IMG/VR virus record: IMGVR_UViG_3300042464_000191
Location: 7,624 to 71,623 of that record
Length of the DNA: 64,000 nucleotides
Origin: a virus
Strand: one strand, 5' to 3'
Below, one piece after another: positions 1 to 38,988 of this stretch (position 1 is its first letter; every line of letters begins with the position of its first letter). A model generated the notes under the pieces. The model was not told where the DNA came from and made no database searches. It was given only the letters and a program-made list of their open reading frames with translations. Position numbers and translations under genes: made by a program.

Positions 1-64
1 AATTCCACCAAACAGTATCGACAACATCTTGACACTAGCCCTACAACAAACTGGATTAAAATAA
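1..64 (+). CDS. 3' end of an upstream hypothetical gene (partial)
   Basis: Open frame from position 2 (IPPNSIDNILTLALQQTGLK) ends TAA at 62-64, overlapping the next ATG (TAATG coupling). Confidence 0.6.
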   Translation, partial: IPPNSIDNILTLALQQTGLK

Positions 65-1047
65 TGGATATTCTTGAAAACATCAGAGGATTATTTAAGC
101 AACACAAGATTAGAAATATGCAGCTTGATCCTAATGGATCGTGTAATGCCGGATGCTGGTTTTGTCCAGTAAGATATGTTGGTAATCCAGAAGAAGCCAA
201 AAATCAAATGGATCCAGAGTTGCTAGAAAAAATCTTCTACAACATTGTTCAAGAAAGAGATAATAATGGATTGGTAGACCCTGCTTTTAATGGTTTCTAT
301 ACTTCTCACTACAATGAAGTTCTTTTATATAGACACTTTGAAGATTTACTAAAAGTAGCCAGAAAGTACAAAATGATTTTTATGGTACTTTCTAATGGTA
401 CAACTCTGACTCCACAAAAGACTGATCTTATATTAGAGTACCGCGATGTTATATCTGGCATATGCTTAAATGTTCCATGTTTTGAAGATGAACTTTGGTC
501 TAAAAGAGTAAATCTCCCAAAACAACTTTTCCCAAAGCTAATCAGTAATATTCAATACTTTTTAGATACTCATCCCATGATGCTATCTATACAAGTAAAT
601 GGCTGGAGTGCAGACAACACATGGCTACAAAAGGGAGAAAATTTTCCTGTAGATTTGTCTGATGATGAAAACGAAAAACAATTTCAATTAGCAAAATCAA
701 TGTTTCCAAAAGCTAATGTATTTAAAATGCCACACTTGGTAGATCGTGCTGGTGCTATTGGGGATGTAATAACCAATCTACATGCTATAAAAACATATCA
801 TGCAAATAAAAAAGTTGTCGGCTGCTTAAACTCCAGAGAAACCGGTGGAAGACCGGTAGGCTGGATTCATGTTAATGCAAATGGAGAATGCTTTTTGTGC
901 TGCAATGACTATGACATGGAAATAAAGTTTGGTGACTTCAAGACTCAATCTTTAAAAGATTTTTGGGGTAGTGAAGATCATGTAAATAAAATTAAGGAAT
1001 CTTACGAAGGAATCTGTACAAAGTGCGCTTCCGCACAGTTCGAATAA
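64..1047 (+). CDS. Radical SAM protein with C-terminal SPASM/twitch domain
   Basis: CNAGCWFC (CxxxCxxC) motif; SNGT motif; C-terminal IHVNANGECFLCCND...FGD...SLKDFW...CTKC. Confidence 0.9.
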   Translation: MDILENIRGLFKQHKIRNMQLDPNGSCNAGCWFCPVRYVGNPEEAKNQMDPELLEKIFYNIVQERDNNGLVDPAFNGFYTSHYNEVLLYRHFEDLLKVARKYKMIFMVLSNGTTLTPQKTDLILEYRDVISGICLNVPCFEDELWSKRVNLPKQLFPKLISNIQYFLDTHPMMLSIQVNGWSADNTWLQKGENFPVDLSDDENEKQFQLAKSMFPKANVFKMPHLVDRAGAIGDVITNLHAIKTYHANKKVVGCLNSRETGGRPVGWIHVNANGECFLCCNDYDMEIKFGDFKTQSLKDFWGSEDHVNKIKESYEGICTKCASAQFE

Positions 1048-1059
1048 CAGGAGAAAAAT

Positions 1060-2079
1060 ATGCCTATTCCATCTAGAAAATCCGGTGAAGATAAAGATGC
1101 ATTTGTGTCCAGATGCATGGGTAATGAAACCATGAAAAAAGACTATCCAGACCAACAACAGAGAGTAGCTATCTGTATTGGTCAAGCAACAGCAGATTGC
1201 GATTGTGTAGAAGCTGCTGATTATGAATTACAGATGGAAGCTGGATATGCAGAAGAACTTACCGAAGATAATTTCTATGTTCCACTAGAAGCAGAATATG
1301 AAGACTTTGGCGAAGAAACAGAACAGTGGGATGTAGCCACAGCAAAGCCCGGATTATGGGAAAATATTCGTAAGAAAAGAGAACGAGAAGGTAAGAATTA
1401 TAAACCAGCAAAGCCGGGAGATCCAGATAGACCAAGCAAAGACGCTTGGAAAAAAGCTCAATCTGACGGCGGCGATGAAATGGCTTTAGAGCAAATCCAA
1501 AAGATGCATGATCAGCTTATGGAAATTGTTATGAAGCTTAAAGATATGTCTTTATCGGTTGAATTTCAAGATTGGACAAAAGACATGATTTCTAAGGCTG
1601 AAATTTATATACAAAATGTATATGACTTTGTAAAGTATTATGAACCCGGTAAATATGAAGATGAATATACTGGCGATGAAGAAGAACCATCAGATCCAGA
1701 GACAGAAGAACCAAAAATGGAAACAGAAGATGGAAGCTATGAATATCAAGATCCACAAACTGGTGAAATTTATACATATAGACGCAAGGGATATTATGAA
1801 AAGAACGGACGAGTTCTTATGTATATGGGACAAGCGGTTGAATATCAAGGACGCAAAGTGACATTGAATAAACCATTTAGAACATCAAATGGTCCAAAGA
1901 AGTTTGCAGTATACGTCAAGAACGAAAGTGGCAATGTTGTTATTGTAAGATTTGGTGACCCAAATATGAAGATAAAGAAGAATATTCCAGAGCGACGAAA
2001 GAGCTTTAGGGCTAGACACAACTGTGATAATCCGGGTCCAAAGTGGAAAGCTAGGTATTGGGCCTGTAAGAGTTGGTAA
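1060..2079 (+). CDS. Modular phage protein made of small domains (MPIP..RCM module, KPGLWENI module, helical MALEQ..W..I..A..YI module, C-terminal KKFAVYV..RFGDPNM..SFRARHNC module)
   Basis: 339-aa ORF with GGAG RBS; modules resemble small domains recurrent in large phage genomes and are separated by acidic linkers. Confidence 0.75.
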   Translation: MPIPSRKSGEDKDAFVSRCMGNETMKKDYPDQQQRVAICIGQATADCDCVEAADYELQMEAGYAEELTEDNFYVPLEAEYEDFGEETEQWDVATAKPGLWENIRKKREREGKNYKPAKPGDPDRPSKDAWKKAQSDGGDEMALEQIQKMHDQLMEIVMKLKDMSLSVEFQDWTKDMISKAEIYIQNVYDFVKYYEPGKYEDEYTGDEEEPSDPETEEPKMETEDGSYEYQDPQTGEIYTYRRKGYYEKNGRVLMYMGQAVEYQGRKVTLNKPFRTSNGPKKFAVYVKNESGNVVIVRFGDPNMKIKKNIPERRKSFRARHNCDNPGPKWKARYWACKSW

Positions 2080-2089
2080 TAATTTGTGT

Positions 2090-2127
2090 GCGATGGGGGG
2101 AAATTGAGTACCCCCATTGTACTCTTT
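2090..2127 (+). terminator. Probable intrinsic terminator hairpin
   Basis: GCGATGGGGG...CCCCCATTGT inverted repeat just after the stop at 2079; weak T-tract. Confidence 0.5.
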
Positions 2128-2145
2128 GATCGTAGACGCTATAAT
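2117..2145 (+). promoter_or_regulatory. Sigma70-like promoter upstream of dnaE-N
   Basis: TTGTAC (2117-2122), 17 bp spacer, TATAAT (2140-2145). Confidence 0.65.
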
Positions 2146-2179
2146 ACATTGATTGAGTCTCTAGTTGCGAGGAAAATAT

Positions 2180-3808
2180 ATGGCTTGGTTTCCATTGAAA
2201 AACTACACACACTATAGTCTATTAAAAGGCTATTCGAAGCCAGACGAACTGGCTTTTAAGTGCAAAGAAAATAATTATTTAGCCTGCGGTATTTGTGACT
2301 ATAAAACAATATCTGGTGCTGTGTCCTTCTACAAGGCTTGCAAGAAAGCTGGCATTAAGCCAATCATAGGCTGCTCATTTGATAAATTCTCTCTATTCGC
2401 CAAGAATAAGGCGGGGTGGCACGATTTAATAGAATTAGTCTCATCACTTGATGAAAATGATAATGTCCCAGAATCTATATTGTCTAATATTTTGAAGAAG
2501 AATAATCTTATCAAGTTGTCAGACTCTTATTCTAAGTCTATGCCTATTAGTTATTATACAAATAGGGCGGATGCCAAACTACACAGAGTTTTACTTTGCT
2601 CTGATATGAAGACAACTCTGCCAAAAGTAACTAAATGTATCAGACAAGATAAAAATGGCAGCATAAATGTTGATTCCTATTTGGCACAAAATCATGCTGA
2701 TAAAGTTCAATACTTCATGCATGATACTTATTATGTTCTGGATAAAGACGAATCCAAAGATTTGGACTCTACTGAACTAGATAAGATCTATAGTCAATGC
2801 GAAGATTACGACATTTTAAACAAGCCAATGCTACCAAAGTTTAGCTGTCCAAACGGAGCCACAGAAGAAGATTATCTTAAAGAACTGTGCCGCGAGGGGT
2901 GGAAAAATCTTTTGATAGCACAAAATAAAGTATCTAATGAAGATGATAAACAAAGATATCTTGATAGATTCAAAGAAGAATTCGACGTTATTAAAAATGC
3001 TAACCTATTCGGTTATTTTTTGATTGTTCGTGATATCATAAACTATGTGAATAGCAGGGGATGGCTTTCTGGCCCCGGTAGAGGTTCAGCGGCTGGATGC
3101 TTAATCTCATATCTTGTCGGAATTACTAAAATCGATCCTCTAGAATTTGATCTTCTATTTGCTCGTTTTTATAATGCTGGACGAAATACTGCTGACCATA
3201 TATCTTTACCAGATATTGATATGGACGTTCCCGGCAAGCATAGAGATGAAATTATTGGGTACATTAAGGACAAGTATGGTCATGATCGCGTCAGTCAAAT
3301 GTTAACGTTTGGTAGACTACAAGGAAAGAGTGCTATCAAAGAAGTTCTACGTATTAATGAGGCTTGTTCTTTTGCTGAAATGAATGCTATAAGCAATTGC
3401 ATTCCAGATGAAGCTAAAATCTCAGATCAACTAGCAGAAATGGACGATGAAGATCGATCTATCATTAGATGGGCATTGATCAACAATGCTGATGAACTGA
3501 GGGACTTTTGTAGAATTAATGATAATGGTGAACTTGAGGGCGAATATGCTGATTATTTTGATCAAGCTATCAAAATCGAAGGCACATTTAAAACGCAAGG
3601 AAAACATGCCGCCGGTGTTGTGATCTCTGCCGAACCTTTACAAAAAGTTTGCCCAATGGTAAAACAGAAAGGATCGCATGAAAAAATTGCTGGGTTAGAA
3701 ATGAGTGATCTAGAGGCGTTGGGTCATGTAAAATTTGACGTTCTAGGAATCAATTTGCTAGATAAAATCATGAAGATACAAGAAATAACAGGAGTTGCAA
3801 ATGGCTAA
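2180..3808 (+). CDS. dnaE: DNA polymerase III alpha subunit, N-terminal part (degenerate PHP plus palm/thumb)
   Basis: THYSLL, GIKPIIGC, GPGRGSAAG, PDIDMD, GKHAAGVVIS, KFDVLG motifs; start moved to ATG 2180 after GAGG. Confidence 0.93.
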   Translation: MAWFPLKNYTHYSLLKGYSKPDELAFKCKENNYLACGICDYKTISGAVSFYKACKKAGIKPIIGCSFDKFSLFAKNKAGWHDLIELVSSLDENDNVPESILSNILKKNNLIKLSDSYSKSMPISYYTNRADAKLHRVLLCSDMKTTLPKVTKCIRQDKNGSINVDSYLAQNHADKVQYFMHDTYYVLDKDESKDLDSTELDKIYSQCEDYDILNKPMLPKFSCPNGATEEDYLKELCREGWKNLLIAQNKVSNEDDKQRYLDRFKEEFDVIKNANLFGYFLIVRDIINYVNSRGWLSGPGRGSAAGCLISYLVGITKIDPLEFDLLFARFYNAGRNTADHISLPDIDMDVPGKHRDEIIGYIKDKYGHDRVSQMLTFGRLQGKSAIKEVLRINEACSFAEMNAISNCIPDEAKISDQLAEMDDEDRSIIRWALINNADELRDFCRINDNGELEGEYADYFDQAIKIEGTFKTQGKHAAGVVISAEPLQKVCPMVKQKGSHEKIAGLEMSDLEALGHVKFDVLGINLLDKIMKIQEITGVANG

Positions 3809-4481
3809 CAGAGACTTTATTATATTTGACTTTGAAACGGGATCAAGAAATCCACACAGAACACAACCAACACAAATTGCCGCCATAGCACTAGATGGTA
3901 GAACGCTATCAATGAAGGGGCAATTCAATAGTGAGATAAAACCGATCTTTGATGAAGCGGAAGCCGTTGCCGCTGGTGTTGACCCAATCGAAGATGAAGC
4001 ACTTAAGATTACTAAGAAGACAAGAGAACAGCTAGAAAAAGCTCCATCATTAAAATCTGTATGGTCCAAGTTTACTAAATTTGTTGATCAGTATAATTGG
4101 AAGGGCGACACATTTTTTAATCCAATTCCAGTTGGGTTTAATATTATTGGATTCGATATGATTATAGTCAATAGGCTATGTAGAGAATTTGGGCCTTGGG
4201 ATAAAGATCGTGAGCAACAAAAGTTATTCAGCAAGGTTTATAAGTTTGATATCATGGACTCTGTTTTTGCTTGGACAGAGAGCGATCCAAGTATTAGATC
4301 TATAAGCATGGATGCATTGAGAGAACGTATGGGCTTAAGTTTTGACAATGCACACGATGCTTTGCAGGACGTAAAAGATGAAGCAAATATCTTTATCAAA
4401 CTGATGAAAACACACAGAGCAGTATATCAAAATATTAAATTTGAGAAAGCCTTTGCAAATGGGGAATTGTATGTTAAATGA
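3801..4481 (+). CDS. dnaQ: DEDDh 3'-5' exonuclease (DnaQ/epsilon-like)
   Basis: ExoI DFET, ExoII GFN..GFD, ExoIII HDALQD; GGAG RBS at 3791; 8-nt overlap with the dnaE-N stop. Confidence 0.88.
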   Translation: MANRDFIIFDFETGSRNPHRTQPTQIAAIALDGRTLSMKGQFNSEIKPIFDEAEAVAAGVDPIEDEALKITKKTREQLEKAPSLKSVWSKFTKFVDQYNWKGDTFFNPIPVGFNIIGFDMIIVNRLCREFGPWDKDREQQKLFSKVYKFDIMDSVFAWTESDPSIRSISMDALRERMGLSFDNAHDALQDVKDEANIFIKLMKTHRAVYQNIKFEKAFANGELYVK

Positions 4482-6042
4482 TTTGGATTATCACGACAAG
4501 CCCACTTGGCAATTGTTTGCAGATGGTAAGACCAAGGGTATCTTTCAGCTAGAAAGTAATCTTGGTAAGTCTTGGTCTAAAAAACTGGCTCCAACTAACA
4601 TTGAGGAACTGTCTGCCTTAATTGCTATTATTAGGCCGGGAACATTAAAAGCATATGTCGATGGAAAGAGTATGACACAGCACTATGTTGATAGAAAGCA
4701 TGGTAGGGAAGAAGTTACATACTTACATCCAGCACTTGAAGAAATATTGAAGCCAACATATGGCGTTCTGGTTTATCAAGAGCAATCCATGCGTATAGCA
4801 GAAAAGATTGCCGGTTTTAATTTGCAAGAAGCCGACGTTCTTAGAAAAGCTATCGGTAAGAAAAAAGCAGACCTTATGAACGAGGTTAAAAAGTCTTTTA
4901 TTGCTGGTGCAGAAAAAGTTGGCATAGTAAACAAGGAAGAAGCAGAGCAAATCTTCGGATGGATCGAAAAGTCATCCAGATATGCCTTCAATAAGTCTCA
5001 TAGCGTCTCTTATGCAATATGTTCTTATTGGAGTGCATATTTTAAGGCCCATTATCCACTTCAATTTTTCTTATCGTATCTTTATTATGCTAACGAAAAA
5101 CAAGACCCTCATCAAGAGATTTACGAATTAATTTCTGAGGCAAAACTGTTTGACATAGAAACAAAGACCCCAAATCTATCTAATTTTGATAAGAAGTTCA
5201 ATATCAAGAACAAGAAGATATATTTCGGTATTAAAGATGTCAAATCTCTTACTGGAGCAACTGGCGATAAATTGATTACTGTTATAGACGAAGCCCAAAA
5301 AGAGTTGGGTAAGCCAATTAAGGACTTTACTTGGTTAGAAATTCTACTCTTTGTTTCGTCTAAGATTAGCTCTACTGCTTTTAAGTCATTAGCATCCATT
5401 GGATTTTTTAGAAACTTTAGTGGAAAGATCACTAGGAATAAAGCGCTATATGATTATGAGATCTATAGAACTTTGACAAAGGCTGAACAAAATTGGATTA
5501 TTGAGAATTATCCTACTAAGCAATGGTCTAGTTTCGTTGATTGTTTAAAGGACTTAGCACCAACTAAAAAAGAGGGTGGAGGAACTTCCAAAATAGATCG
5601 TAAGCAGGCAATCGAAAATGAGATTCAACTATTGATTAATCCGCCATACGATCTAGAAGACGATCCAAGCTGGGTCATTGATCAAGAAGTAAAGTTCTTG
5701 GGGTGTCCAGTGAGTATGGCTAGAGTGGAAACGTCCGACACTTCGGCAGCAAATACAACATGTAGGGAAATCGTAAATGGGAAACGCGGAAAAGATATTT
5801 GCGTTGTCGCCAACGTACAAAGGGTTTCTGATTATACTATCACCAAGGGTGAATCTAAGGGGCAATTGATGTCATTTTTAACAATAGAAGATGATTCATG
5901 TATGTTAGATAGCGTGATAGTATTTCCAAAAGTAAGGGAAAAGTATAAGTACGTCCTATACGAAGGAAACAATCTCATATTTTGTGGATCGGTAGAAAAG
6001 AACGATAACTCTTTTATCGTCAATCAAATTCACGAAATCTAG
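4471..6042 (+). CDS. dnaE: DNA polymerase III alpha subunit, C-terminal part (fingers, HhH, OB)
   Basis: GIFQLES, IRPG, TYGVLVYQEQ, LRKAIGKK, YAFNKSHS, OB-fold MSFLTIED; ATG 4471 after GGGGA. Confidence 0.93.
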   Translation: MLNDLDYHDKPTWQLFADGKTKGIFQLESNLGKSWSKKLAPTNIEELSALIAIIRPGTLKAYVDGKSMTQHYVDRKHGREEVTYLHPALEEILKPTYGVLVYQEQSMRIAEKIAGFNLQEADVLRKAIGKKKADLMNEVKKSFIAGAEKVGIVNKEEAEQIFGWIEKSSRYAFNKSHSVSYAICSYWSAYFKAHYPLQFFLSYLYYANEKQDPHQEIYELISEAKLFDIETKTPNLSNFDKKFNIKNKKIYFGIKDVKSLTGATGDKLITVIDEAQKELGKPIKDFTWLEILLFVSSKISSTAFKSLASIGFFRNFSGKITRNKALYDYEIYRTLTKAEQNWIIENYPTKQWSSFVDCLKDLAPTKKEGGGTSKIDRKQAIENEIQLLINPPYDLEDDPSWVIDQEVKFLGCPVSMARVETSDTSAANTTCREIVNGKRGKDICVVANVQRVSDYTITKGESKGQLMSFLTIEDDSCMLDSVIVFPKVREKYKYVLYEGNNLIFCGSVEKNDNSFIVNQIHEI

Positions 6043-6043
6043 A

Positions 6044-6072
6044 TTGTTTTTTGGACTTGTTGTTGCTAAAAT
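6044..6072 (+). promoter_or_regulatory. Sigma70-like extended -10 promoter upstream of ssb and the GT cluster
   Basis: TTGTTT, 17 bp spacer, TAAAAT preceded by TG at the extended -10 position; AAGGAG RBS downstream. Confidence 0.5.
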
Positions 6073-6093
6073 ACTAAGATCAAGGAGAATGAT

Positions 6094-6405
6094 ATGAATG
6101 TGTGTTCTTTTACGGGGTATCTTGTTGAAAACCCTAGGATATCAATGGAAGGCGATGTGGTGAAAGCTGAGTTTACGATGGTGGTATATACTTATCGTAA
6201 AACAAGAAGCGGTGAGAAGAATAGAATACCTACCTATTTACAGTGCGAAGCGTGGCATACTGGTGCAGAAACTTTAGAAAAATATGCTACAAAAGGAACT
6301 AAATTGAACGTTCACGCTTCTGCTAAAAATGTATCTAAAGATAATAAGTCAGTTATTTTTAGAATAAACGAGTTTGACTTCTGCAACCAAGAGTACGACT
6401 ATTAA
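6094..6405 (+). CDS. ssb: Short single-stranded DNA-binding protein (OB fold)
   Basis: MNVCSFTGYLVENP...TYLQCEAW...AETLEKYATKG pattern; lacks the long linker and DDIPF tail. Confidence 0.8.
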   Translation: MNVCSFTGYLVENPRISMEGDVVKAEFTMVVYTYRKTRSGEKNRIPTYLQCEAWHTGAETLEKYATKGTKLNVHASAKNVSKDNKSVIFRINEFDFCNQEYDY

Positions 6406-6406
6406 T

Positions 6407-8071
6407 ATGAGAAAAAAACGCATACTATTTTGTAGCGAAGCTACATTTTTAAATACTGGATATGCTACTTATACCAGAGAGATATTGAACTATCTACACA
6501 ATACTGGTAAATATGAACTAGCAGAAATGGCATCATATGGTGAGCGAAAAGACAAGCGGGCCGCTTCTATACCTTGGAAATATTACGGAGTAGTACCGGA
6601 TAGTTCTTGCTCAGAAGATGAAAAGAAGCAATATGCAGAACATCCAATAGCACAATTCGGTGAACTATTATTTGAATCTGTTTGCTTAGATTTTCAGCCA
6701 GATGTCGTGTGCGATATCAGAGATTTCTGGATGTTGGACTTTCAAGAGCGTTCTCCGTTTAGGCCATTTTACAAATGGTGCATTATGCCAACCGTTGATG
6801 CTAAACCACAGGCTAGGCAATGGATTGCAACATACGAGTCTGCTGATGCTTGTCTAACATACTCTGAGTGGGCTGGAGAAGTAATCAAAGAACAATCTGG
6901 TGGTAAAATAAAATATTTGGGAATAGCACCACCCTCTGCACATCCAGCATATCAACCCATTGATGACAAGTTATCTTTGAGACAATCTTTTGGCATTAAT
7001 CCAAATGCAAAGATAGTTGGCACCGTAATGAGAAATCAAAGGCGCAAATTATATCCAGATCTATTTTCAGCATTTAGGTTATTATTGGATAAGACTAATA
7101 ATGATCCAGACTTAATGTTATATTGTCACACAAGTTATCCAGACCTTGGTTGGGATATACCGGAGCTATTACAAGAATACGGTCTTTCTTCTAGAGTTTT
7201 ATTTACATATATCTGTGGTCAAACTGGTAAGCCCTTCGTTTCTTTATTTAGGGGTGCGGTAGCACAGTCACCTTATTCAAATAAATATGGTGCCGTATTA
7301 TCAAATGTTAAGAACGGTCTAGAGTATGAGGATCTTGCAAAGATTATCAACTTATTCGATCTATATGTTCAGTATGCAAACTGTGAAGGCTTTGGGTTGC
7401 CACAAGTAGAAGCTGCTGCATGTGGCGTTCCAGTAATGTCAACGGATTATTCTGCTATGGAAAGTGTTGTTAGAAACTTAGGTGGAATACCGATTACACC
7501 AAAAGCTCTGTATAAAGAACTAGAAACCGGATGTCTAAGAGCAGTGCCAGACAATGAATTGGCATCTAGTCTAATGTTAGCATTCTTCAATATGCCAAAA
7601 GATCAACGGCTTAATTGGGGTGCAAAAACAAGAGAATCTTTCTTAAAGCATTATAGGTGGGAACAAAGCGGGAAAATGTGGGAAGATTATTTTGATAGTG
7701 TCGAGATTATACCTGACCACTTGGGCTGGAAATCTCCATCTAGAATCAGAAAACCACAAGCTAAACCAGAGAATATAAATAAGCAATTTTCTCATGAAGA
7801 TTTGGCCCGCTGGTTGATAACGTCTGTATTGTGTGAGCCAGAAAAGATAAATTCATTTATGGAAGCTAGGCTTGTACGAGATTTGATGTATAAGAGTACA
7901 ACTTCTACAACGGGCGGAATGTATTTTAATGAAAGTTCAGCCGCCTTTGATGGTAAACAGGGAAGATCATTTTTTGATTTTGATATGGCATACAACCAGA
8001 TGTTAGCACTATGCAATAGAAGAAATTATTGGGAACAAAAGCGATTAGACGCTATAAGGAATATTAAATGA
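6407..8071 (+). CDS. Glycosyltransferase, GT-B fold (GT4-like)
   Basis: RILFCSEA..LNTGYA N-terminus; RNQRRK; EGFGLPQVEAAACGVPV..TDYSAM; start at ATG 6407. Confidence 0.9.
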   Translation: MRKKRILFCSEATFLNTGYATYTREILNYLHNTGKYELAEMASYGERKDKRAASIPWKYYGVVPDSSCSEDEKKQYAEHPIAQFGELLFESVCLDFQPDVVCDIRDFWMLDFQERSPFRPFYKWCIMPTVDAKPQARQWIATYESADACLTYSEWAGEVIKEQSGGKIKYLGIAPPSAHPAYQPIDDKLSLRQSFGINPNAKIVGTVMRNQRRKLYPDLFSAFRLLLDKTNNDPDLMLYCHTSYPDLGWDIPELLQEYGLSSRVLFTYICGQTGKPFVSLFRGAVAQSPYSNKYGAVLSNVKNGLEYEDLAKIINLFDLYVQYANCEGFGLPQVEAAACGVPVMSTDYSAMESVVRNLGGIPITPKALYKELETGCLRAVPDNELASSLMLAFFNMPKDQRLNWGAKTRESFLKHYRWEQSGKMWEDYFDSVEIIPDHLGWKSPSRIRKPQAKPENINKQFSHEDLARWLITSVLCEPEKINSFMEARLVRDLMYKSTTSTTGGMYFNESSAAFDGKQGRSFFDFDMAYNQMLALCNRRNYWEQKRLDAIRNIK

Positions 8072-9186
8072 AAGCATTATTCATATCACACTACAATGAA
8101 GGTAGCGGGTGGTCAAATTGCGGAATCGATCTAATCAAATCTATGCACAGGTCAGGAATAGACACTGTATGTAGAAGCATTAGGCTTGGAGCGGCAAGGC
8201 CACTAGCAGACGAAGAAATAAGTACCTTAGAATCAAAATCTCTATCTAATATAGATGTGTGCATACAGCATGTTTTGCCACATCATTTTGTAAAGACAAA
8301 TAAGTTCAAAAAGAATATAGGATATTTTGTTGCTGAATCAACCAATATCAATTCTGTTTCTTGGTTTAATAACCTAGAGCTTATGGATGAAATATGGGTT
8401 CCTAATCAAACGCTACAACAGTCATTAGTATCTAGCGGTTTTAAGAAAAAGATTAGAGTTATCCCACATGCTTTTGATTTGTCAAAATACTCCAAAAATT
8501 ATGGCAAGGTGGACTTTGGAAACAATAAGCATAAATTCAAGTTTTATTTCATAGGTGATCTCAATGATCGCAAAAATATAGTATCTATTATTAGATCTTT
8601 TCATTCTGAGTTTCATGCGTCCGAACAAGTTGCTCTTGTGCTAAAAATCAAAAGACATGGAACGAATCCACAGGATGTTCAAAAGTATATTGGCAATTTA
8701 TGTCGAAGCATTAAAGAGCAGATGAGATTATATCCTAATATAAACCAGTACCACAAAGAGTTGGTTATAACAGAAGAAATAGACAATAATCACATTAATA
8801 TGCTGCATTCATCATGTGATTGTTTTATTGGTCCAACCCACGGAGAGGGCTGGTTTATACCAGCATTTGACGCCATGTGCTTTGGAAAAACACCAATATG
8901 TAGCAATGAGGGTGGTCCAAAAGAATTCATAGATCTACATAATACCAGCACTGGCTGGCTCGTAAATGGAGTATATGGAGTTTGTAATCATGGCGATCCA
9001 GCGTTTCCAGAATTATTTACTGGTACTGACGAATGGTTTATACCAAGTGAATCAATAATTAAAAAAGCCATGAGATTCTATTATGAAAATAGGGGTTCTG
9101 TAGATAGAGCCGCTGGACTAAAAAGAGCCTCATTATTTTCTTATGAATCCGTTGGGAACATGATAAAGGAAGCACTCAATGATTAA
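8068..9186 (+). CDS. Glycosyltransferase, GT4-like
   Basis: DEIWVP, RKNI, HGEGWFIPAFDAMCFGKTPI. Confidence 0.88.
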   Translation: MKALFISHYNEGSGWSNCGIDLIKSMHRSGIDTVCRSIRLGAARPLADEEISTLESKSLSNIDVCIQHVLPHHFVKTNKFKKNIGYFVAESTNINSVSWFNNLELMDEIWVPNQTLQQSLVSSGFKKKIRVIPHAFDLSKYSKNYGKVDFGNNKHKFKFYFIGDLNDRKNIVSIIRSFHSEFHASEQVALVLKIKRHGTNPQDVQKYIGNLCRSIKEQMRLYPNINQYHKELVITEEIDNNHINMLHSSCDCFIGPTHGEGWFIPAFDAMCFGKTPICSNEGGPKEFIDLHNTSTGWLVNGVYGVCNHGDPAFPELFTGTDEWFIPSESIIKKAMRFYYENRGSVDRAAGLKRASLFSYESVGNMIKEALND

Positions 9187-10177
9187 TAACTCTGTAAAAA
9201 GATTGATATCTATGGCTAATAGTACCAAGCCAGAGAAGTTTAATATTTTGACATTTCCAACTCACGAAAGATATGAGTCTCAGCTTTGTAAAACAGGGCA
9301 TAATTTCTTCTCTTTCACGGTTCCAAATGCCAAGAAATGGAATACAAATCAATTAGCACCCCCAGAAAATTACTATAGTTTGCCAGAATCAAATCCTTGC
9401 GGGTTTCTAAATTACGACATGATTCTGGTGCAAAGTAAATTTTGGCAATTCCAAGTTGCTCAACAAATCAACCAGCAACTAAGTCTACCAATAATATGCT
9501 TAGAGCATACTTTACCAACCCCACAAACATTAAGTCAACAAAATATAGAAGCTATGAAAAACATGCTTGGAGATATTAATATTTTTATCTCAGAGTATTC
9601 CAAAAAGTCTTGGGGTGTTGAGTATAACTCTTTGGTGATTCATCACGGAATAGACTCAGAAACATTTGCTCCGCTTGACATAGAAAAGAAACCATATGTA
9701 TTAACGGTTGCTAATGATTTTGTTAATCGTGACTATTGTTTAAATTATTCTGGATGGAAGAGAGTAACAGACGGCCTTACCACTAGATTAGTTGGGGATA
9801 CAGATGGCCTGTCAAAATCAGCATCCTCAACAGAAGAACTGGTAAAAGAATATAATAGCTGCGGAGTATATTTTAATAGCTCCACACTTAGTCCAATACC
9901 AACATCTTTACTTGAAGCAATGTCTTGTGGGTGTGCTATTGTATCGACAGCCACCTGTATGATTCCAGAAATAATCACTAATGGTTATAATGGTTATATT
10001 TCTAATGACGAAGAAGAATTGAAAAAATATTTGCAGACTGTACTTAATGACGAAAAAGTGAGACAAGAGCTTGGGGCTAATGCGAGAAAGACTATTGTAG
10101 AGAGGTTCTCACAAGATAAGTTTCTTTCACAATGGAACGGTATATTCAATATGGTATATGAGGTTTCTACACGATGA
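9179..10177 (+). CDS. Glycosyltransferase, GT4-like
   Basis: VIHHGIDSETF, PTSLLEAMSCGCAIV, EIITNGYNGY, LGANARKTI. Confidence 0.9.
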   Translation: MINNSVKRLISMANSTKPEKFNILTFPTHERYESQLCKTGHNFFSFTVPNAKKWNTNQLAPPENYYSLPESNPCGFLNYDMILVQSKFWQFQVAQQINQQLSLPIICLEHTLPTPQTLSQQNIEAMKNMLGDINIFISEYSKKSWGVEYNSLVIHHGIDSETFAPLDIEKKPYVLTVANDFVNRDYCLNYSGWKRVTDGLTTRLVGDTDGLSKSASSTEELVKEYNSCGVYFNSSTLSPIPTSLLEAMSCGCAIVSTATCMIPEIITNGYNGYISNDEEELKKYLQTVLNDEKVRQELGANARKTIVERFSQDKFLSQWNGIFNMVYEVSTR

Positions 10178-10602
10178 ATATTCAAATTACAGAAAAACTA
10201 GATAAAACAATCGACGGGTTTGTAACTATTCCTATTCTATATGGTAAAATAGATCTTGGGGTTGTGCCAGACAACGCCGCATTTAATATAGTCGCGGCTA
10301 ATGCGTTAGATAGCATCCCGCATAATCTTCTAAATGAATTCGTCTCATCAGTTTGTAAAAAGATGAGATTTGGTGCTAGATTATTTTTAGGCGGCGTAGA
10401 GCTATCTTCTGTAGCAAGAGATGTAACAAGCGGAAAAATGCCTAGTGCAGCTTTTAATGAGCTTATCTTTACAAAACGTGGACTATATAATGTGAGGGAC
10501 ATTGTAGAGTTACTAGAATCACACGGATTAAATATTGAACAAGCAAACATACAAGGACATATTTATGAAATCACAGCTTCAAGACCGAAGGCTACAAACT
10601 AG
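10174..10602 (+). CDS. Small protein resembling a truncated or degenerate class I SAM methyltransferase
   Basis: PDNAAFNIVA..ALDSIP...KKMRFGARLFL resembles methyltransferase post-I motifs; no GxG motif I. Confidence 0.45.
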   Translation: MNIQITEKLDKTIDGFVTIPILYGKIDLGVVPDNAAFNIVAANALDSIPHNLLNEFVSSVCKKMRFGARLFLGGVELSSVARDVTSGKMPSAAFNELIFTKRGLYNVRDIVELLESHGLNIEQANIQGHIYEITASRPKATN

Positions 10603-11305
10603 TTGTAAAAGTTGCGTCTTTGCAACCTATGATGATAAAACGCAAGTTGGGTGCTTACACGAAAGAATAGAAAAATTTAGACCCAACGTTATAGAAGCGT
10701 ATGACGAAGAAAAAGAATTCTACGTCATTAATGGCCTATGCAATCTGTATCGTAATAGTAAATGGAATGATGGTGAACCAGATATCGATAAATCTATGGC
10801 CGAATCCAGCCTATCATTCGATTGTTTTATTGATTGCTCAAATATAAATGATGAAGCAACCGACACTATCATCAATTTTGTATCAAATGCAACATATTAT
10901 GATAAAAAGATAAACTGGTATTTGTTTCACCTAGACTCAGAAACTCAGGCGGTAAAGAATAATGTGCTACGTATTTTCATGAGCTTGCACAAAATTTCAC
11001 CGAAAATATCTGTTTGTATTCATAAAAGCATTTATCTAAACGAGTTTGTTACTAAATCGAATAGTACATATCATGCCGTATTAAATGCAACAAATATGCA
11101 TGATTTAGGCATCTTTACCTCTGTAAATAATGCAATAAATAGGGATATCAAAAAGTTCATTATAGGACACATACACAATACCGATTTCATATCGAATATA
11201 GCTTATAGAATAGAATTCATCAAGAATCAAAACATCGATTATTATGCTAACGTGAATAGTATAATAGAACAATCCAAAAATGTGGGGATGTATTTTGAAA
11301 TCTAA
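10565..11305 (+). CDS. Hypothetical protein with N-terminal Cys cluster (CKSC..C..C), possibly a degenerate GT-A-like domain
   Basis: Long ORF within an overlapped operon; AAGGA before ATG 10565. Confidence 0.6.
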   Translation: MKSQLQDRRLQTSCKSCVFATYDDKTQVGCLHERIEKFRPNVIEAYDEEKEFYVINGLCNLYRNSKWNDGEPDIDKSMAESSLSFDCFIDCSNINDEATDTIINFVSNATYYDKKINWYLFHLDSETQAVKNNVLRIFMSLHKISPKISVCIHKSIYLNEFVTKSNSTYHAVLNATNMHDLGIFTSVNNAINRDIKKFIIGHIHNTDFISNIAYRIEFIKNQNIDYYANVNSIIEQSKNVGMYFEI

Positions 11306-12056
11306 GATAAAAAGTAAACGAACGGTTGCTATCAAAAGAGGTCCGAAGGCGACCGTCGTTGATGCACCAGATTTAATTACTATTGTGCTATTGTGTGATT
11401 CACCGGGATATAGAATGAAATCTTACGGTGCGTTGCCTCTTATTGCAATTAATGAAAAATACAAACTGATAGATTTGCAGATACATGCTATTCAACAAGC
11501 ATTCAAAAATTTTGAAATTATACTGTGCATTGGATTTGATGCAGAAAAAATATGTAAATACGTGAGATCTAAGTATAATAAACTGAATATTCGTATAGTA
11601 GAGAATCAATTGTTTGAATCTTCTAATTCGTGCGAGTCTACCAGAGTAGCTATCAATAATACTTTTAACCATAAACTATTGATTTGTGATGGTAATCTAC
11701 TATTGAATAAGCAGGTGCTATCTTTAATAGATGACAAGGATTCATGCATATTGGTAGAAAACAAGCCATCAGACAACCTAGAAATTAAGGTTAATGTTGA
11801 TGATAAGCATCAAGCACAATATTTTTCATTTGGCGCTCATAGAACTTGGTCCGAAATAGTATTCCTAAATACTCAAGAATCGATAGAGATATTTAGAAAA
11901 TTTTTATCGTCACATGATAATAAAAATAAGTTTATATTTGAAGCATTAAATGAGCTTGTTAGATCCAGAGTATCTCTTAGATGCATATATAATGAAAATA
12001 CATTACACAAGATAAGCAACATTAAAACATATAGATCTATAAAGGAATTAACATGA
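11280..12056 (+). CDS. Nucleotidyltransferase-like protein (NTP_transferase/LicC-like)
   Basis: IVLL..PGYRMKSYG..PLI...LIDLQI...EIILCIGFDAEKI...IVEN..F...NS..S...LLICDGNL; signature motif is degenerate and the start is uncertain. Confidence 0.7.
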   Translation: MWGCILKSKIKSKRTVAIKRGPKATVVDAPDLITIVLLCDSPGYRMKSYGALPLIAINEKYKLIDLQIHAIQQAFKNFEIILCIGFDAEKICKYVRSKYNKLNIRIVENQLFESSNSCESTRVAINNTFNHKLLICDGNLLLNKQVLSLIDDKDSCILVENKPSDNLEIKVNVDDKHQAQYFSFGAHRTWSEIVFLNTQESIEIFRKFLSSHDNKNKFIFEALNELVRSRVSLRCIYNENTLHKISNIKTYRSIKELT

Positions 12057-12937
12057 AATTTGTCATATTGAATTACGGATCACGCACCCAAACAGAACCA
12101 TATTACTTGAATATGGCATTCAATCTTTTGGGAGGTTGTAAGTCTATGATATGGGATCCAAAAGAGGTAAGTGCTTATGATTTATTTGACACTGTTAAAC
12201 CAGACGTATTTATAACACATATTTCTGGAGTAACGACAGACGCTGTGTCCTACTTGAAAGAAAACAAGCACATACAAATGATTGTTAATATTACAGGTGG
12301 AAATGCAGCCGCAGTATCTTCTCTGGAACAAATATTTTTAGAAGCCAAGCTTAATTGTCCATTCTTTTTTCTCAACGGAGATTCCGCTACAGAATCTAAA
12401 AAAATCAAGGTTCTAAACCTAGGCTTTGGTAGCGATGTATTTTTAAATGAAGGATCTCTGAAGTATAATATAGAGAATGGAATTTTTGTGAGTGATTATA
12501 ATGAAATCAAATCGATTGGAAACACATACCACACCATTTCTTCTAAAGAAAAACTAGAAAGCAAGGTGGACATTGTATTGCCAATTACTCAACTTGCTAA
12601 CATCTACAAAAACTATAACAATTTTATTTTTAGATCGGGTTTTGAATTTATACCACAGGTTTTATTAGACGCAATTTTCTATGGAAATAGAGTCTGGTTC
12701 GATATAGATAGCGAAGAAGAAAGAAAGATAGTATCAGATAAAATAAAGAAGTCATTTAGAACAGATATGGACATAACTGATCCTAGTGGTATTGACCCAA
12801 CTCAACTTAAAAAGTGCGTTATAAAGAGACATACATGTTTGCATAAGGCCAAGTCTTTACTATCTCAGTTTTCATGCAAAGATCAACTTGGGGAACTTGA
12901 CAAATTAATAGAACTATACACAAAGGATAAAGTATGA
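12053..12937 (+). CDS. Hypothetical protein, possibly a degenerate GT-B-like protein
   Basis: 294-aa ORF with ATGA overlaps; KPDVFI and LLDAIFYG are reminiscent of GT-B motifs. Confidence 0.55.
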   Translation: MKFVILNYGSRTQTEPYYLNMAFNLLGGCKSMIWDPKEVSAYDLFDTVKPDVFITHISGVTTDAVSYLKENKHIQMIVNITGGNAAAVSSLEQIFLEAKLNCPFFFLNGDSATESKKIKVLNLGFGSDVFLNEGSLKYNIENGIFVSDYNEIKSIGNTYHTISSKEKLESKVDIVLPITQLANIYKNYNNFIFRSGFEFIPQVLLDAIFYGNRVWFDIDSEEERKIVSDKIKKSFRTDMDITDPSGIDPTQLKKCVIKRHTCLHKAKSLLSQFSCKDQLGELDKLIELYTKDKV

Positions 12938-13689
12938 GCGTAACAATGGTTATGAGCGGATTCAAAAGACCGCACACTTTACGAGAGCAATTCAACGCGA
13001 TCAAGAATCAAACATATCAAGATCTAGAAATTATTCTTTGGGTTAATCTAGTCGATGATTTAGCCAAATTTGATCCAGAAGTAATCAATTCTTGTAGAAG
13101 CATTATATCTAATTCTGATTACGGAAGCTGGGGAAGATTTTCAGCCGCACTAAATGCTAGAACGCAATATGTGTGCGTAATAGATGATGATACTATCCCC
13201 GGTAAAAAGTGGATAGAGAACTGCATGAATACTATGAAGACCCACGCTGGCGTATTAAGCACAAGGGGCGTATTAGCCCATAAGGAACACGATCTGACCT
13301 ATCCAGCACCAAAGAGCTATACAGCGATTGGTTGGTGTAATCCAAATGAAACCACCACTAGGGTAGACATGGGATGCCATTCATGGTTTTTTGAAAAAGT
13401 TTGGCTAAGAGCATTTTGGGCTGAGATGCCAGATGTTATCCCAATGAGATACGGTGAAGATACCCACCTATCATATGCTGTCAAAAAGCATTTTGGATTA
13501 AATACTTATGTTCCTCCACATCCAAAAGAAGATATGGATCTTTGGGGATCTATGCCAGATACTGCAATTAGATATGGCGAAGAGCCTGTAGCTATATCTA
13601 TGGATTATATGGCAAACGTTGGCATGAATCGTTATTGGAATTATGTTAGACAAAATGGATACAAGATAGTAGAGGAAGAACAATCATGA
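12934..13689 (+). CDS. Glycosyltransferase family 2 (GT-A)
   Basis: VTMVMSGFKRP..L..Q..AI.NQT, VCVIDDD (DxD), GEDTHLS. Confidence 0.88.
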   Translation: MSVTMVMSGFKRPHTLREQFNAIKNQTYQDLEIILWVNLVDDLAKFDPEVINSCRSIISNSDYGSWGRFSAALNARTQYVCVIDDDTIPGKKWIENCMNTMKTHAGVLSTRGVLAHKEHDLTYPAPKSYTAIGWCNPNETTTRVDMGCHSWFFEKVWLRAFWAEMPDVIPMRYGEDTHLSYAVKKHFGLNTYVPPHPKEDMDLWGSMPDTAIRYGEEPVAISMDYMANVGMNRYWNYVRQNGYKIVEEEQS

Positions 13690-25959: not shown

Positions 25960-27630
25960 TTAATGATCCAATTCGTATGTCCAACTTAAATTAATACTAT
26001 ATCTTCCCTCTTTTGGTGTCCAGCTTTCGCTTGGTGGATTAAGAAAATACTTTCTAACTCCCGGCTCGTATGCTGGACTCAACTGTTTGATTAAAGTATT
26101 TAGCTGTGATCTAATTGGTTCTCTTAAACTTGGCTTAGATAATAGCAATGGGTTACGACCACTAGAATATGGTACATCGGTGTAATCTAATAGAATTTCT
26201 ATACCAACGTCTCGTCTATATTCTGTTCTGCCTCCGATATATTGTAAAACTGGTCCGGTTGTTCTACCAAGAACTGGTATAATAGCAAATACGTCGCCGG
26301 GATAGGTATCATTAACATTGATGCTTTCAGATAGTACCCCGCTGATGAAATTAGTTGGACGATTATCAAATTCTACATTATATGTGATTTCGCCAGTAAA
26401 TTCATTCGTTGCTAAAGCTATAGACTTTGGTTGACTATTTAGAGTTGTATTTGCAGCATTACAGGCTCTTTTATAAATGTACGAGGTGATGCCATATGTT
26501 CCATTGTTACTTACTTCAAAGTATTTTGTTTTAGCGTTATCAAATGGGCTTGGTGTGCCAGTTGATGGAGTTATACCATTGTATAGACTTCCACTTGCTG
26601 GTATTACTGATAAGCCTTTGATGGTTCCATTGATACTAGCAGATATAAATGGACTGTCTATACTAGCATTAATAGATAGATTGTAATTCTCATAAGCAAT
26701 TCCACTAGTAAGCAACCATGTATCTGTGATGCTAAAAGTGCCAGCGGTTTTATCAATATTTTCGGTACGTGTGTGGTTGGTTGCCGAATATACGCCAGTT
26801 AAAGATATAACATAATCGGATAAAGAAACCCCTAAAGTATGATTAGGATATTTAGCATATCCGCCATTACTATCATTTTGTATAACCGATTTTTTAAGAA
26901 AGTTTCTAGCCTCAAGCCAGCCGTATAATCTACTGGTAGCAGCATTGCCACTTGGGATAAAACCGTCTCTCCCTGTAGCTGTCAAGTTTCTAGTTAATCT
27001 ATAGGTGCGTGGATTATGTGGCCCCAAATCTCCTCTAGTTTCTCCAATGCCCTCATCTACTTCCATAGACCAAGTTTCAGAAAAATCTTCCACCAATCCG
27101 CCAAATTCAGCAATTAATTCTATTTCTGTTTTGTTGCCAACATTATAGCCATCAGGCGCATATGAACTATCGATATAAACTTGATTGTTGTTTTTAAGAA
27201 TAGAATCTGCTCTGAGATTAACAGTATATCTACATAGATCTACATAAACACCTTCTTCGAATGAGATACTAACTAGCTTGGGATAAAATACTATCGGTGG
27301 AGTATTGGCTGGAGCAAATTCGAATCTAGATGCTTCTAGTGCAAATAATTCTCGCAAAGCATTTTGCTTGGCAAAAATAGATCCTAATCTTGGCAGATCA
27401 CCACCACCTCCGTAGCTAATAGTTTCGCCTAATGGTCTATTGTAATTATTGTGGTGCAAACCAGTAGAAAATGGTGAACCTTCATCTGCTAATATTGTTC
27501 CAGTTAATACAATATCATAAGATGAACCTAGTGTTCCGGTTTTATTTTTAATTGGTGTGCATGTTATAGACACAAGAGGTGTTGGTCGAATAACAGCCTG
27601 TAAACCATTACTTGTAGTAATTAATAGCAT
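25960..27630 (-). CDS. Putative distal tail/tail-tip protein
   Basis: 556-aa beta-rich ORF with repeated E(S/T)W..G.(Y/F)SI strands; genomic position. Confidence 0.55.
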   Translation of the reverse strand: MLLITTSNGLQAVIRPTPLVSITCTPIKNKTGTLGSSYDIVLTGTILADEGSPFSTGLHHNNYNRPLGETISYGGGGDLPRLGSIFAKQNALRELFALEASRFEFAPANTPPIVFYPKLVSISFEEGVYVDLCRYTVNLRADSILKNNNQVYIDSSYAPDGYNVGNKTEIELIAEFGGLVEDFSETWSMEVDEGIGETRGDLGPHNPRTYRLTRNLTATGRDGFIPSGNAATSRLYGWLEARNFLKKSVIQNDSNGGYAKYPNHTLGVSLSDYVISLTGVYSATNHTRTENIDKTAGTFSITDTWLLTSGIAYENYNLSINASIDSPFISASINGTIKGLSVIPASGSLYNGITPSTGTPSPFDNAKTKYFEVSNNGTYGITSYIYKRACNAANTTLNSQPKSIALATNEFTGEITYNVEFDNRPTNFISGVLSESINVNDTYPGDVFAIIPVLGRTTGPVLQYIGGRTEYRRDVGIEILLDYTDVPYSSGRNPLLLSKPSLREPIRSQLNTLIKQLSPAYEPGVRKYFLNPPSESWTPKEGRYSINLSWTYELDH

Positions 27631-38972: not shown

Positions 38973-38988
38973 ATTTAATCCATTAATA

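Follow-up and report, generated by a model that had tools for sequence, protein, structure and literature searches.

How does a phage replicate with a DNA polymerase whose gene is cut in two? The question is raised by positions 2,180 to 6,042 of a stretch of 64,000 nucleotides (positions 7,624 to 71,623 of IMG/VR record IMGVR_UViG_3300042464_000191; the whole stretch is hereafter called the window), part of a 71.6 kb viral contig that is estimated to be 45% complete and derives from an uncultured lake phage. The alpha subunit of DNA polymerase III (Pol III alpha, DnaE) is normally one chain of about 1,100 residues and the natural splits known of it are mended by inteins. In the window, dnaE is divided into two open reading frames (ORFs), dnaE-N and dnaE-C, and the gene of a DEDDh 3'-5' exonuclease is nested between them. 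Here, I argue that this is, with high probability, a genuine and ancient fission of DnaE, intein-less and placed around the exonuclease gene, whose three polypeptide products most likely assemble non-covalently.

The three genes lie on the plus strand. dnaE-N (2180 to 3808; ATG at 2180, TAA at 3806-3808) encodes 542 residues with a degenerate PHP domain (PF02811), palm and thumb (PF07733); the exonuclease gene (3801 to 4481; ATG at 3801, TGA at 4479-4481) encodes a DnaQ/epsilon-like protein of 226 residues; dnaE-C (4471 to 6042; ATG at 4471, a second in-frame ATG being possible at 4459) encodes 523 residues comprising the fingers (PF17657), a helix-hairpin-helix region and a C-terminal region. 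A first-pass annotation, made from the nucleotide sequence alone, had described these genes as overlapping and as each having its own ribosome-binding site, and the ORF coordinates bear this out: dnaE-N and the exonuclease gene share 8 nt (3801-3808), the exonuclease gene and dnaE-C 11 nt (4471-4481), and a Shine-Dalgarno-like run is found 5' of all three starts. These runs are GAGGA at 2169-2173, read off the sequence 6 nt 5' of the dnaE-N start, AGGAG at 3790-3794, within the end of dnaE-N and 6 nt 5' of the exonuclease start, and a weak GGGGA at 4461-4465, 5 nt 5' of the dnaE-C start. The frame shifts by +1 at each of the two junctions.

The junctions are reproduced in other samples. At least 59% of the words sampled from the stretch are found in each of twenty public sequencing runs, which come from 19 studies and are all lake or freshwater metagenomes. 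Four other lake-water runs, none flagged as a possible source of the record, were chosen, and in each of the four (one record per run) a contig spans both junctions with 0 gaps and 0-2 substitutions. No indel is listed anywhere in these contigs, which settles in favour of the annotated structure the check on assembly indels that had been suggested for it.

In Pfam searches, the dnaE-N product matches PHP and DNA_pol3_alpha (E 2.6e-68), the dnaE-C product DNA_pol3_finger (E 8.2e-49), and the product of the middle gene RNase_T (PF00929; 55.2 bits, cut-off 24). The HHH_6 match of dnaE-C is weak (20.4 bits, below the 25.6 cut-off) and the Pfam scan yields no OB match in this protein; its relatives match HHH_6 and PF01336. 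The exonuclease matches phrog_192, 'DNA polymerase exonuclease subunit', and the best solved-structure match of its alignment profile is the PolC exonuclease domain 2p1j (E 2e-9).

The C piece is indeed, as had been proposed, the segment that directly follows the N piece in intact DnaE. On the full-length profile phrog_405 the N piece extends to position 615 and the C piece covers 623-1067, and on NCBIfam PRK05673 the former stops at 569 and the latter begins at 584; in profile terms the fingers follow the palm contiguously, though on separate chains, and each half alone falls below the NCBIfam equivalog cut-offs. In alignments to solved structures, residues 205-529 of the N piece correspond to residues 265-564 of Escherichia coli alpha and residues 7-260 of the C piece to residues 591-841, which puts the break at about 577-585, just past the palm strand with the third catalytic Asp. 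The N piece ends 19 residues past the KFDVLG motif (about 18 in the first-pass annotation), and the C piece begins about 6 residues ahead of conserved DnaE sequence. Counted over both pieces, the distance from KFD to FQLES is 54 residues, compared with 49-59 in unbroken relatives; thus, no DnaE sequence was lost at the break, which falls in a loop of variable length.

The three catalytic Asp residues had all been assigned to dnaE-N, and rightly so: D345, D347 and D520 (plus-strand codons at 3212-3214, 3218-3220 and 3737-3739) are invariant in 31 of 31 aligned sequences. Likewise, D10, E12, D119, H185 and D190 of the exonuclease are the same in all 32 aligned sequences, the Exo III motif being H-x4-D, and about 100 positions of the C piece are invariant in the alignment of relatives. 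The metal ligands of the PHP domain are replaced, H14, H16 and D23 of Mycobacterium tuberculosis DnaE1 being aligned with K7, Y9 and K16. As D23 is described as necessary for the exonuclease activity of the PHP domain in the sections of PMC5636811 dealing with it, the loss of these ligands means that proofreading must come from a separate exonuclease, as in E. coli.

The nested layout is the norm in a large group of related aquatic phages. With dnaE-C and three unbroken relatives as queries, 158 related IMG/VR loci were collected (L-numbers below; P-numbers denote database proteins), 152 of which are informative. The order dnaE-N, exonuclease, dnaE-C recurs in 149 of them, namely 141 scored directly and 8 scripted as 'other', in which the N match runs over the exonuclease start; identity to the window ranges from 87% down to about 38%. 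A search for the same order in related phages had been recommended from the start, and its outcome favours the proposal. Database proteins tell the same story. Among the best 150 representatives (at 50% identity) with a match to dnaE-C, the majority have 505-580 residues and begin at the same break; N-piece relatives amount to 5,162 candidates at E ≤1e-30, and the best 120 of near-equal length all have 515-555 residues with PHP and palm domains only. Four related genomes, three of them complete (149.5-161 kb), each hold a single RNase_T gene with a DnaB-like helicase gene a few kb away, and no family A or B polymerase was matched in any of the four. One related locus stands apart: the dnaE-N ORF at L126:6001-7641 has one in-frame stop, which may be a sequencing error or mark a broken copy, and L126 was left out of the alignments.

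Among cultured phages the layout was not encountered. A blastn search of positions 2100-6100 against 50,697 phage records gave no match, and tblastn with the three proteins retrieved cultured relatives all below 40% identity, the layout occurring in none among the matches listed. Two cultured phages whose DnaE is annotated in pieces were discarded, as neither holds an exonuclease within: in Bacillus phage vB_BceM_WH1 three dnaE coding sequences are separated by gaps, and in Alicyclobacillus phage MMB025 the dnaE pieces flank an endonuclease.

No element that could rejoin the two halves was found in the window. The Pfam scan returned no Hint or intein family at E ≤0.01 in either half, and the N piece ends in a tail of only 19 residues, in agreement with the initial remark that intein termini are not visible. 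A permissive Rfam scan of positions 1900-6400 returned three chance-level matches, none of them to an intron family, and overlaps of 8 and 11 nt leave too little non-coding space for an intron core; the suggested check for a rejoining intron or intein was thus negative in both scans. The exonuclease gene is the sole gene between the pieces, no homing endonuclease gene being present there in the window.

How, then, might the enzyme be put together? The break lies in a variable loop at the palm/fingers boundary of the phage replicative DnaE, and the three genes would give rise to three separate polypeptides, the halves being rejoined neither by an intein or intron nor by frameshifting or bypass. 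Alpha-N would contribute the catalytic palm along with a PHP domain that is dead, alpha-C would bring the fingers as well as the regions that bind DNA and the clamp, and the exonuclease would supply proofreading, like epsilon in E. coli; the three would associate non-covalently into an enzyme resembling the Pol III core. By analogy with the E. coli core, the exonuclease would bind the polymerase. Epsilon's C-terminal segment reportedly binds the PHP domain of the polymerase, and a tail of about 20 residues is conserved at the C-terminus of the exonuclease (F214 is found in at least 90% of rows and F218 in all) and is a plausible tether. In the more distant clade (L043-L081), the C piece is extended at its N-terminus by about 27 residues, and a CGC...C pattern is conserved within its first 35 residues or so. 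The unbroken relatives of this clade are devoid of the extension, which could be a docking element gained after the split.

The first-pass annotation had suggested a three-subunit C-family replicase with coupled stoichiometry. The three-subunit part is the reading best supported by comparison, given the layout in 149 of 152 loci, the invariant catalytic residues, and the fact that neither a rejoining element nor, in the three complete relatives, another polymerase was found; the coupling did not stand as a general rule. A start-codon heuristic gives an overlap of the exonuclease stop with the dnaE-C start in 80 of 142 loci, and a distance of 0-30 nt in 24 more (104 of 142 in total). The junction between dnaE-N and the exonuclease gene is tight in only 33 of the 142 and spans 31-300 nt in 81, so that coupled 1:1:1 translation is not general in the group. 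This is one of several points that weigh against the three-chain enzyme. The sliding-clamp families PF00712 and PF02768 had no match in the four related genomes, which is a weak negative, and no RNA run is among the 23 runs listed for the stretch, a gap that bears on any unknown splicing route. Assembly, stoichiometry and activity I infer from the catalytic and layout data and from the precedent of phage genes-in-pieces, as far as these are treated in PMC2988022. A complex prediction with 31-row alignments, run without controls on full-length alpha-N, alpha-C shortened to residues 1-230 and the exonuclease, scored 0.00 and 0.00, and speaks neither for nor against binding.

In the 81 loci with a spacer of 31-300 nt, this spacer usually encodes a conserved small ORF of one of two families. 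S1 (about 60 residues, with an invariant CC pair) is found in one major clade (L043-L081, L147), and S2 (about 72-87 residues; for instance L117:5064-5315) in a second one (L082-L137, L144-L151). Both stand directly 5' of the exonuclease gene, in the nested cassette and 5' of an unbroken dnaE alike. No kinship between S1 and S2 was detectable (hhalign probability 0.2%); S2 had no Pfam match, S1 only weak matches to PHROGs of unknown function, and no homologue of either was found in the window, whose own lineage is without both. Their products may be accessory subunits, their likeness to E. coli theta being one of size only.

Other genes are also found at the junctions of relatives, namely an FkbM methyltransferase, Endonuclease_7, HNH_3 and HNH-like ORFs. 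Two loci hold 2.7-3.7 kb of extra genes between the exonuclease gene and dnaE-C (L069:2296-4920 and L074:1280-4920). ThyX is among them, as is a DUF1559 protein that carries a prepilin-type N-methylation motif. The latter kind of protein is typical of Planctomycetota, which may hint at the host.

As to the origin of the layout, three loci representing two distinct sequences have a dnaE that is unbroken at this site. L114 and L117 are two contigs, identical in the segments used for the tree, one being a complete genome of 158.5 kb; L143 is the third. Unbroken marine proteins of 1,052 residues (P0001-P0003) are 54-56% identical to the N piece. In L114/L117 the gene order is PD-(D/E)XK nuclease, 165-residue ORF, S2, exonuclease, dnaE and single-strand DNA-binding protein (SSB); in split loci such as L082 it is nuclease, 165-residue ORF, dnaE-N, S2, exonuclease, dnaE-C and SSB. 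The sole difference is that dnaE-N and the S2-exonuclease cassette have swapped places. In L143, the exonuclease gene lies 2.1 kb 3' of the unbroken dnaE.

A quick IQ-TREE phylogeny of DnaE was computed from 87 rows over the 403 columns on either side of the break, and nine bacterial DnaE proteins formed the outgroup. It omits loci whose identity to a retained row is about 88% or more, the short-match loci L074, L081 and L137, database proteins beyond P0040 (P0176 and P0267 being kept) and database proteins with interrupted segments. Split and unbroken rows interleave on this tree; at least four changes are implied, of which starred branches force two. A tree that keeps the 52 split rows monophyletic is worse by 135 log-likelihood units (p-AU 6e-72), the group having been defined after the tree had been seen. 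On account of this interleaving, the tree gives no direction of change. The exonuclease is placed differently in the unbroken lineages, which tips the balance slightly towards an old split with re-fusions; I thus lean slightly to an old fission followed by several re-fusions, rather than to a lateral spread of the nested layout, on these sequence comparisons.

Lateral spread is nevertheless a possibility, though not a likely one. According to this scenario, dnaE was ancestrally unbroken, and the nested layout arose once and was passed on by homologous recombination between co-infecting relatives, possibly driven by the homing-endonuclease-like genes at the junctions; no independent re-fusions would be required. 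The interleaving on the tree and the rejection of a single split clade speak for it, Endonuclease_7, HNH_3 and HNH-like ORFs do occur at the junctions of several loci, and free-standing homing endonucleases are reported to co-convert flanking markers in the relevant part of PMC2988022. Yet the 403 columns next to the break should have moved with the cassette and should have clustered the split rows, and they do not. Moreover, the exonuclease gene is upstream of the unbroken dnaE in L114/L117 and, in L143, 2.1 kb downstream of it, which independent re-fusions of an ancestrally split gene fit at least equally well, and the rejection of split monophyly is tempered by the group having been named only once the tree was at hand.

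A further idea, which I consider doubtful, is that the exonuclease, together with the small neighbouring protein in most relatives, acts as a structural clasp that joins alpha-N and alpha-C. If this were true, assembly of the polymerase would require the proofreader and fidelity would be built into assembly, and the fission would be kept or reversed depending on the position of the cassette.

Another route to the same layout, raised as an option in the first-pass annotation, is an in-frame insertion of the exonuclease into DnaE followed by fission; the insertion would be PolC-like and the fission would have taken place at both domain borders. PolC, as presented in the part of PMC5636811 concerned with it, demonstrates that a C-family polymerase can accommodate an inserted DEDD exonuclease. 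Fused versions were sought among longer relatives and none was found: of those related to the N piece the best 120 are all without RNase_T, and so are the 8 that were checked for the C piece. Three candidates were rejected. P0164 and P0201 have the length of exonuclease-C fusions and are actually palm-plus-fingers fragments unbroken at this site; P0271, the only longer relative of the exonuclease (430 residues, on a contig of 1.8 kb), joins about 235 unrelated residues to residues ~36-226 of a close exonuclease relative, is probably a chimera and has no DnaE part. With no fused protein found, insertion followed by fission is left without support. In addition, most relatives nest the exonuclease gene together with a small ORF, and L114/L117 carry that unit 5' of an unbroken dnaE; the S2-exonuclease unit between the same flanking genes points to the relocation of a free-standing cassette. 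An inserted exonuclease domain is, in sum, improbable as the origin of the layout.

It is likewise improbable that the halves are rejoined, whether by a group I or II intron containing the exonuclease ORF, by a split intein or by +1 frameshifts or bypass, to give a single DnaE chain or a PolC-like fusion. Introns and inteins are common in phage polymerase genes, the window junctions are both offset by +1, and relatives hold split inteins elsewhere in dnaE. These last serve as a control. In L023, L025, L027, L043, L045 and L046, dnaE-N is broken again at GPGRG/S, and the upstream fragment ends in an N-intein-like domain; in L025 and L045 this fragment is followed by a free-standing nuclease-like ORF of 264-291 residues (TnsA-like/DUF7487). 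The Hint-type matches of the L025 N-fragment are below cut-offs, the classic start and block motifs being visible. An intein-like break of dnaE-C at FN(K/R)/SHS is found in L114, L117, L135, L136 and L138, with a NUMOD3/DUF559-type ORF between the pieces in L117. Contiguous inteins with LAGLIDADG domains also occur in many database relatives. Whereas the inteins of relatives are plainly visible, the N piece at the break studied here has no intein-sized extension, the Rfam scan of 1900-6400 matched no intron family, and there is no room for an intron core outside the ORF. Furthermore, reading frames and spacers vary from locus to locus, and relatives have the FkbM methyltransferase, Endonuclease_7, HNH_3 or ThyX genes in their junctions, in some cases with extra genes at both; frameshifting or read-through is thereby ruled out. 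The +1 offset at both junctions, to which attention had been drawn, is therefore true of the window and not meaningful beyond it.

Finally, the origin of the window in an incomplete metagenome-assembled contig invites the idea of assembly or sequencing indels at the junctions, or of a pseudogene in decay. This has a negligible probability, since the indel-free contigs of four runs, the identical break in thousands of database proteins and, among the informative loci, in 149 of 152, the invariant catalytic residues and the frame differences between loci exclude assembly error, pseudogene decay and programmed frameshifting alike.

The arrangement may be compared with a handful of known systems. 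PRK09532 and PRK07373, which I take to be the models of the two cyanobacterial DnaE halves, meet at about residue 175 of the C piece, i.e. about 175 residues downstream of the phage break. As in the window, the cyanobacterial enzyme is a C-family replicative polymerase encoded by two genes; there, in contrast, the genes are at separate loci and the halves carry the parts of a trans-splicing split intein, which ligates them into one chain, as far as described in the pertinent part of PMC2677866, whereas the phage pieces are adjacent and the break has no intein. The 'fractured genes' of environmental phages, three DnaE loci among them in the portion of Dassa et al. 2009 (PMC2677866) devoted to these, share with the window a broken phage DnaE with a free-standing gene in between. 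Their split-intein halves flank a homing endonuclease gene; in the window intein parts are lacking, and what the intervening gene encodes is the proofreader of the polymerase itself. It is the GPGRG/S and FN(K/R)/SHS breaks of the relatives that match the fractured-gene arrangement as outlined in that portion of PMC2677866, where a single intein-less fractured case is mentioned as well, an SbcD-like gene whose halves flank a Vsr-like ORF.

A closer parallel, on the evidence of the sections of PMC2988022 on T4-like phages, is offered by their genes-in-pieces: nrdA of Aeh1 split by mobE, gene 43 divided into 43A and 43B, and the T4 topoisomerase genes 39 and 60. Here, too, essential replication enzymes are split without an intein or intron, and the pieces reassemble, for the same sections report that split NrdA is active and that 43A and 43B co-purify with polymerase activity (PMC2988022). 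With adjacent ORFs, no splicing element found and both pieces conserved, dnaE of the window is likewise a gene in pieces. The T4-like splits concern a family B polymerase or other enzymes, involve a homing endonuclease or an untranslated spacer and are found in few phages; in the window, by contrast, the split enzyme is a C-family polymerase, the nested gene would encode a subunit of it, and the group concerned is very large.

The E. coli Pol III core (alpha, epsilon, theta) resembles the phage system in its PHP domain without metal ligands and its separate DEDDh exonuclease, and differs in its single-chain alpha and its unlinked genes, where the phage has a split alpha with adjacent genes. 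PolC likewise combines a C-family polymerase and a DEDD exonuclease in one locus, the exonuclease domain being inserted, by the account of PolC in PMC5636811, in a PHP loop of a single chain. In the window, the exonuclease is encoded by a separate gene situated some 300 residues further on, at the palm/fingers boundary. Lastly, T4-like jumbo phages have a minimal Pol III alpha module in the form of two stand-alone proteins, for which the passages on this module in Iyer et al. 2021 (PMC7824862) report no intein. According to the same passages (PMC7824862), the module is devoid of PHP and other domains, its genes are far apart and it accompanies a family B polymerase. The window, on the other hand, has a full-length DnaE cut once, with its genes placed around the exonuclease gene, and no other polymerase was detected in the related genomes.

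No report of an intein-less cut of a full-length DnaE with a nested proofreader was found in the full-text literature, searched without supplements, figures and subscription journals. The case represents a cut between palm and fingers that is natural, widespread and, to all appearances, functional, without a mending element. The phages concerned, a large group from freshwater and the sea, are about 100-160 kb in size and seem to lack any other replicative polymerase. The split may serve as a system for studying how the two halves of a C-family polymerase, the catalytic and the template-binding one, dock and whether the proofreader assists in this, and as a system for the fission and fusion of an essential gene in nature, with unbroken sister genes as natural controls. 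It also bears on annotation, as thousands of public entries named 'DNA polymerase III subunit alpha' or 'PHP domain-containing protein' are halves of the split enzyme.

Downstream of dnaE-C, the window encodes an SSB of 103 residues (6094 to 6405, plus strand; Pfam SSB, 31.2 bits). It is a conserved neighbour, an SSB homologue being present 3' of dnaE-C in 128 related loci. Directly 3' of the SSB gene follow at least four glycosyltransferase genes of the GT1 and GT2 families (6374-13689, plus strand), the first of which is kept beside the SSB gene in L117 too. On the 5' side of the replication module, a radical SAM/SPASM-domain protein is encoded at 64-1047 (plus strand), with homologues in the flanks examined at only 4 loci, the window ORF counted. 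Further along the window, among presumed structural ORFs, of which most of those scanned have no Pfam match and only some match PHROGs, two giant ORFs of 3,798 and 2,836 residues lie back to back on the minus strand (27630-39026 and 38989-47499), and GC content rises to 0.46 near 40-42 kb, against about 0.36 elsewhere.

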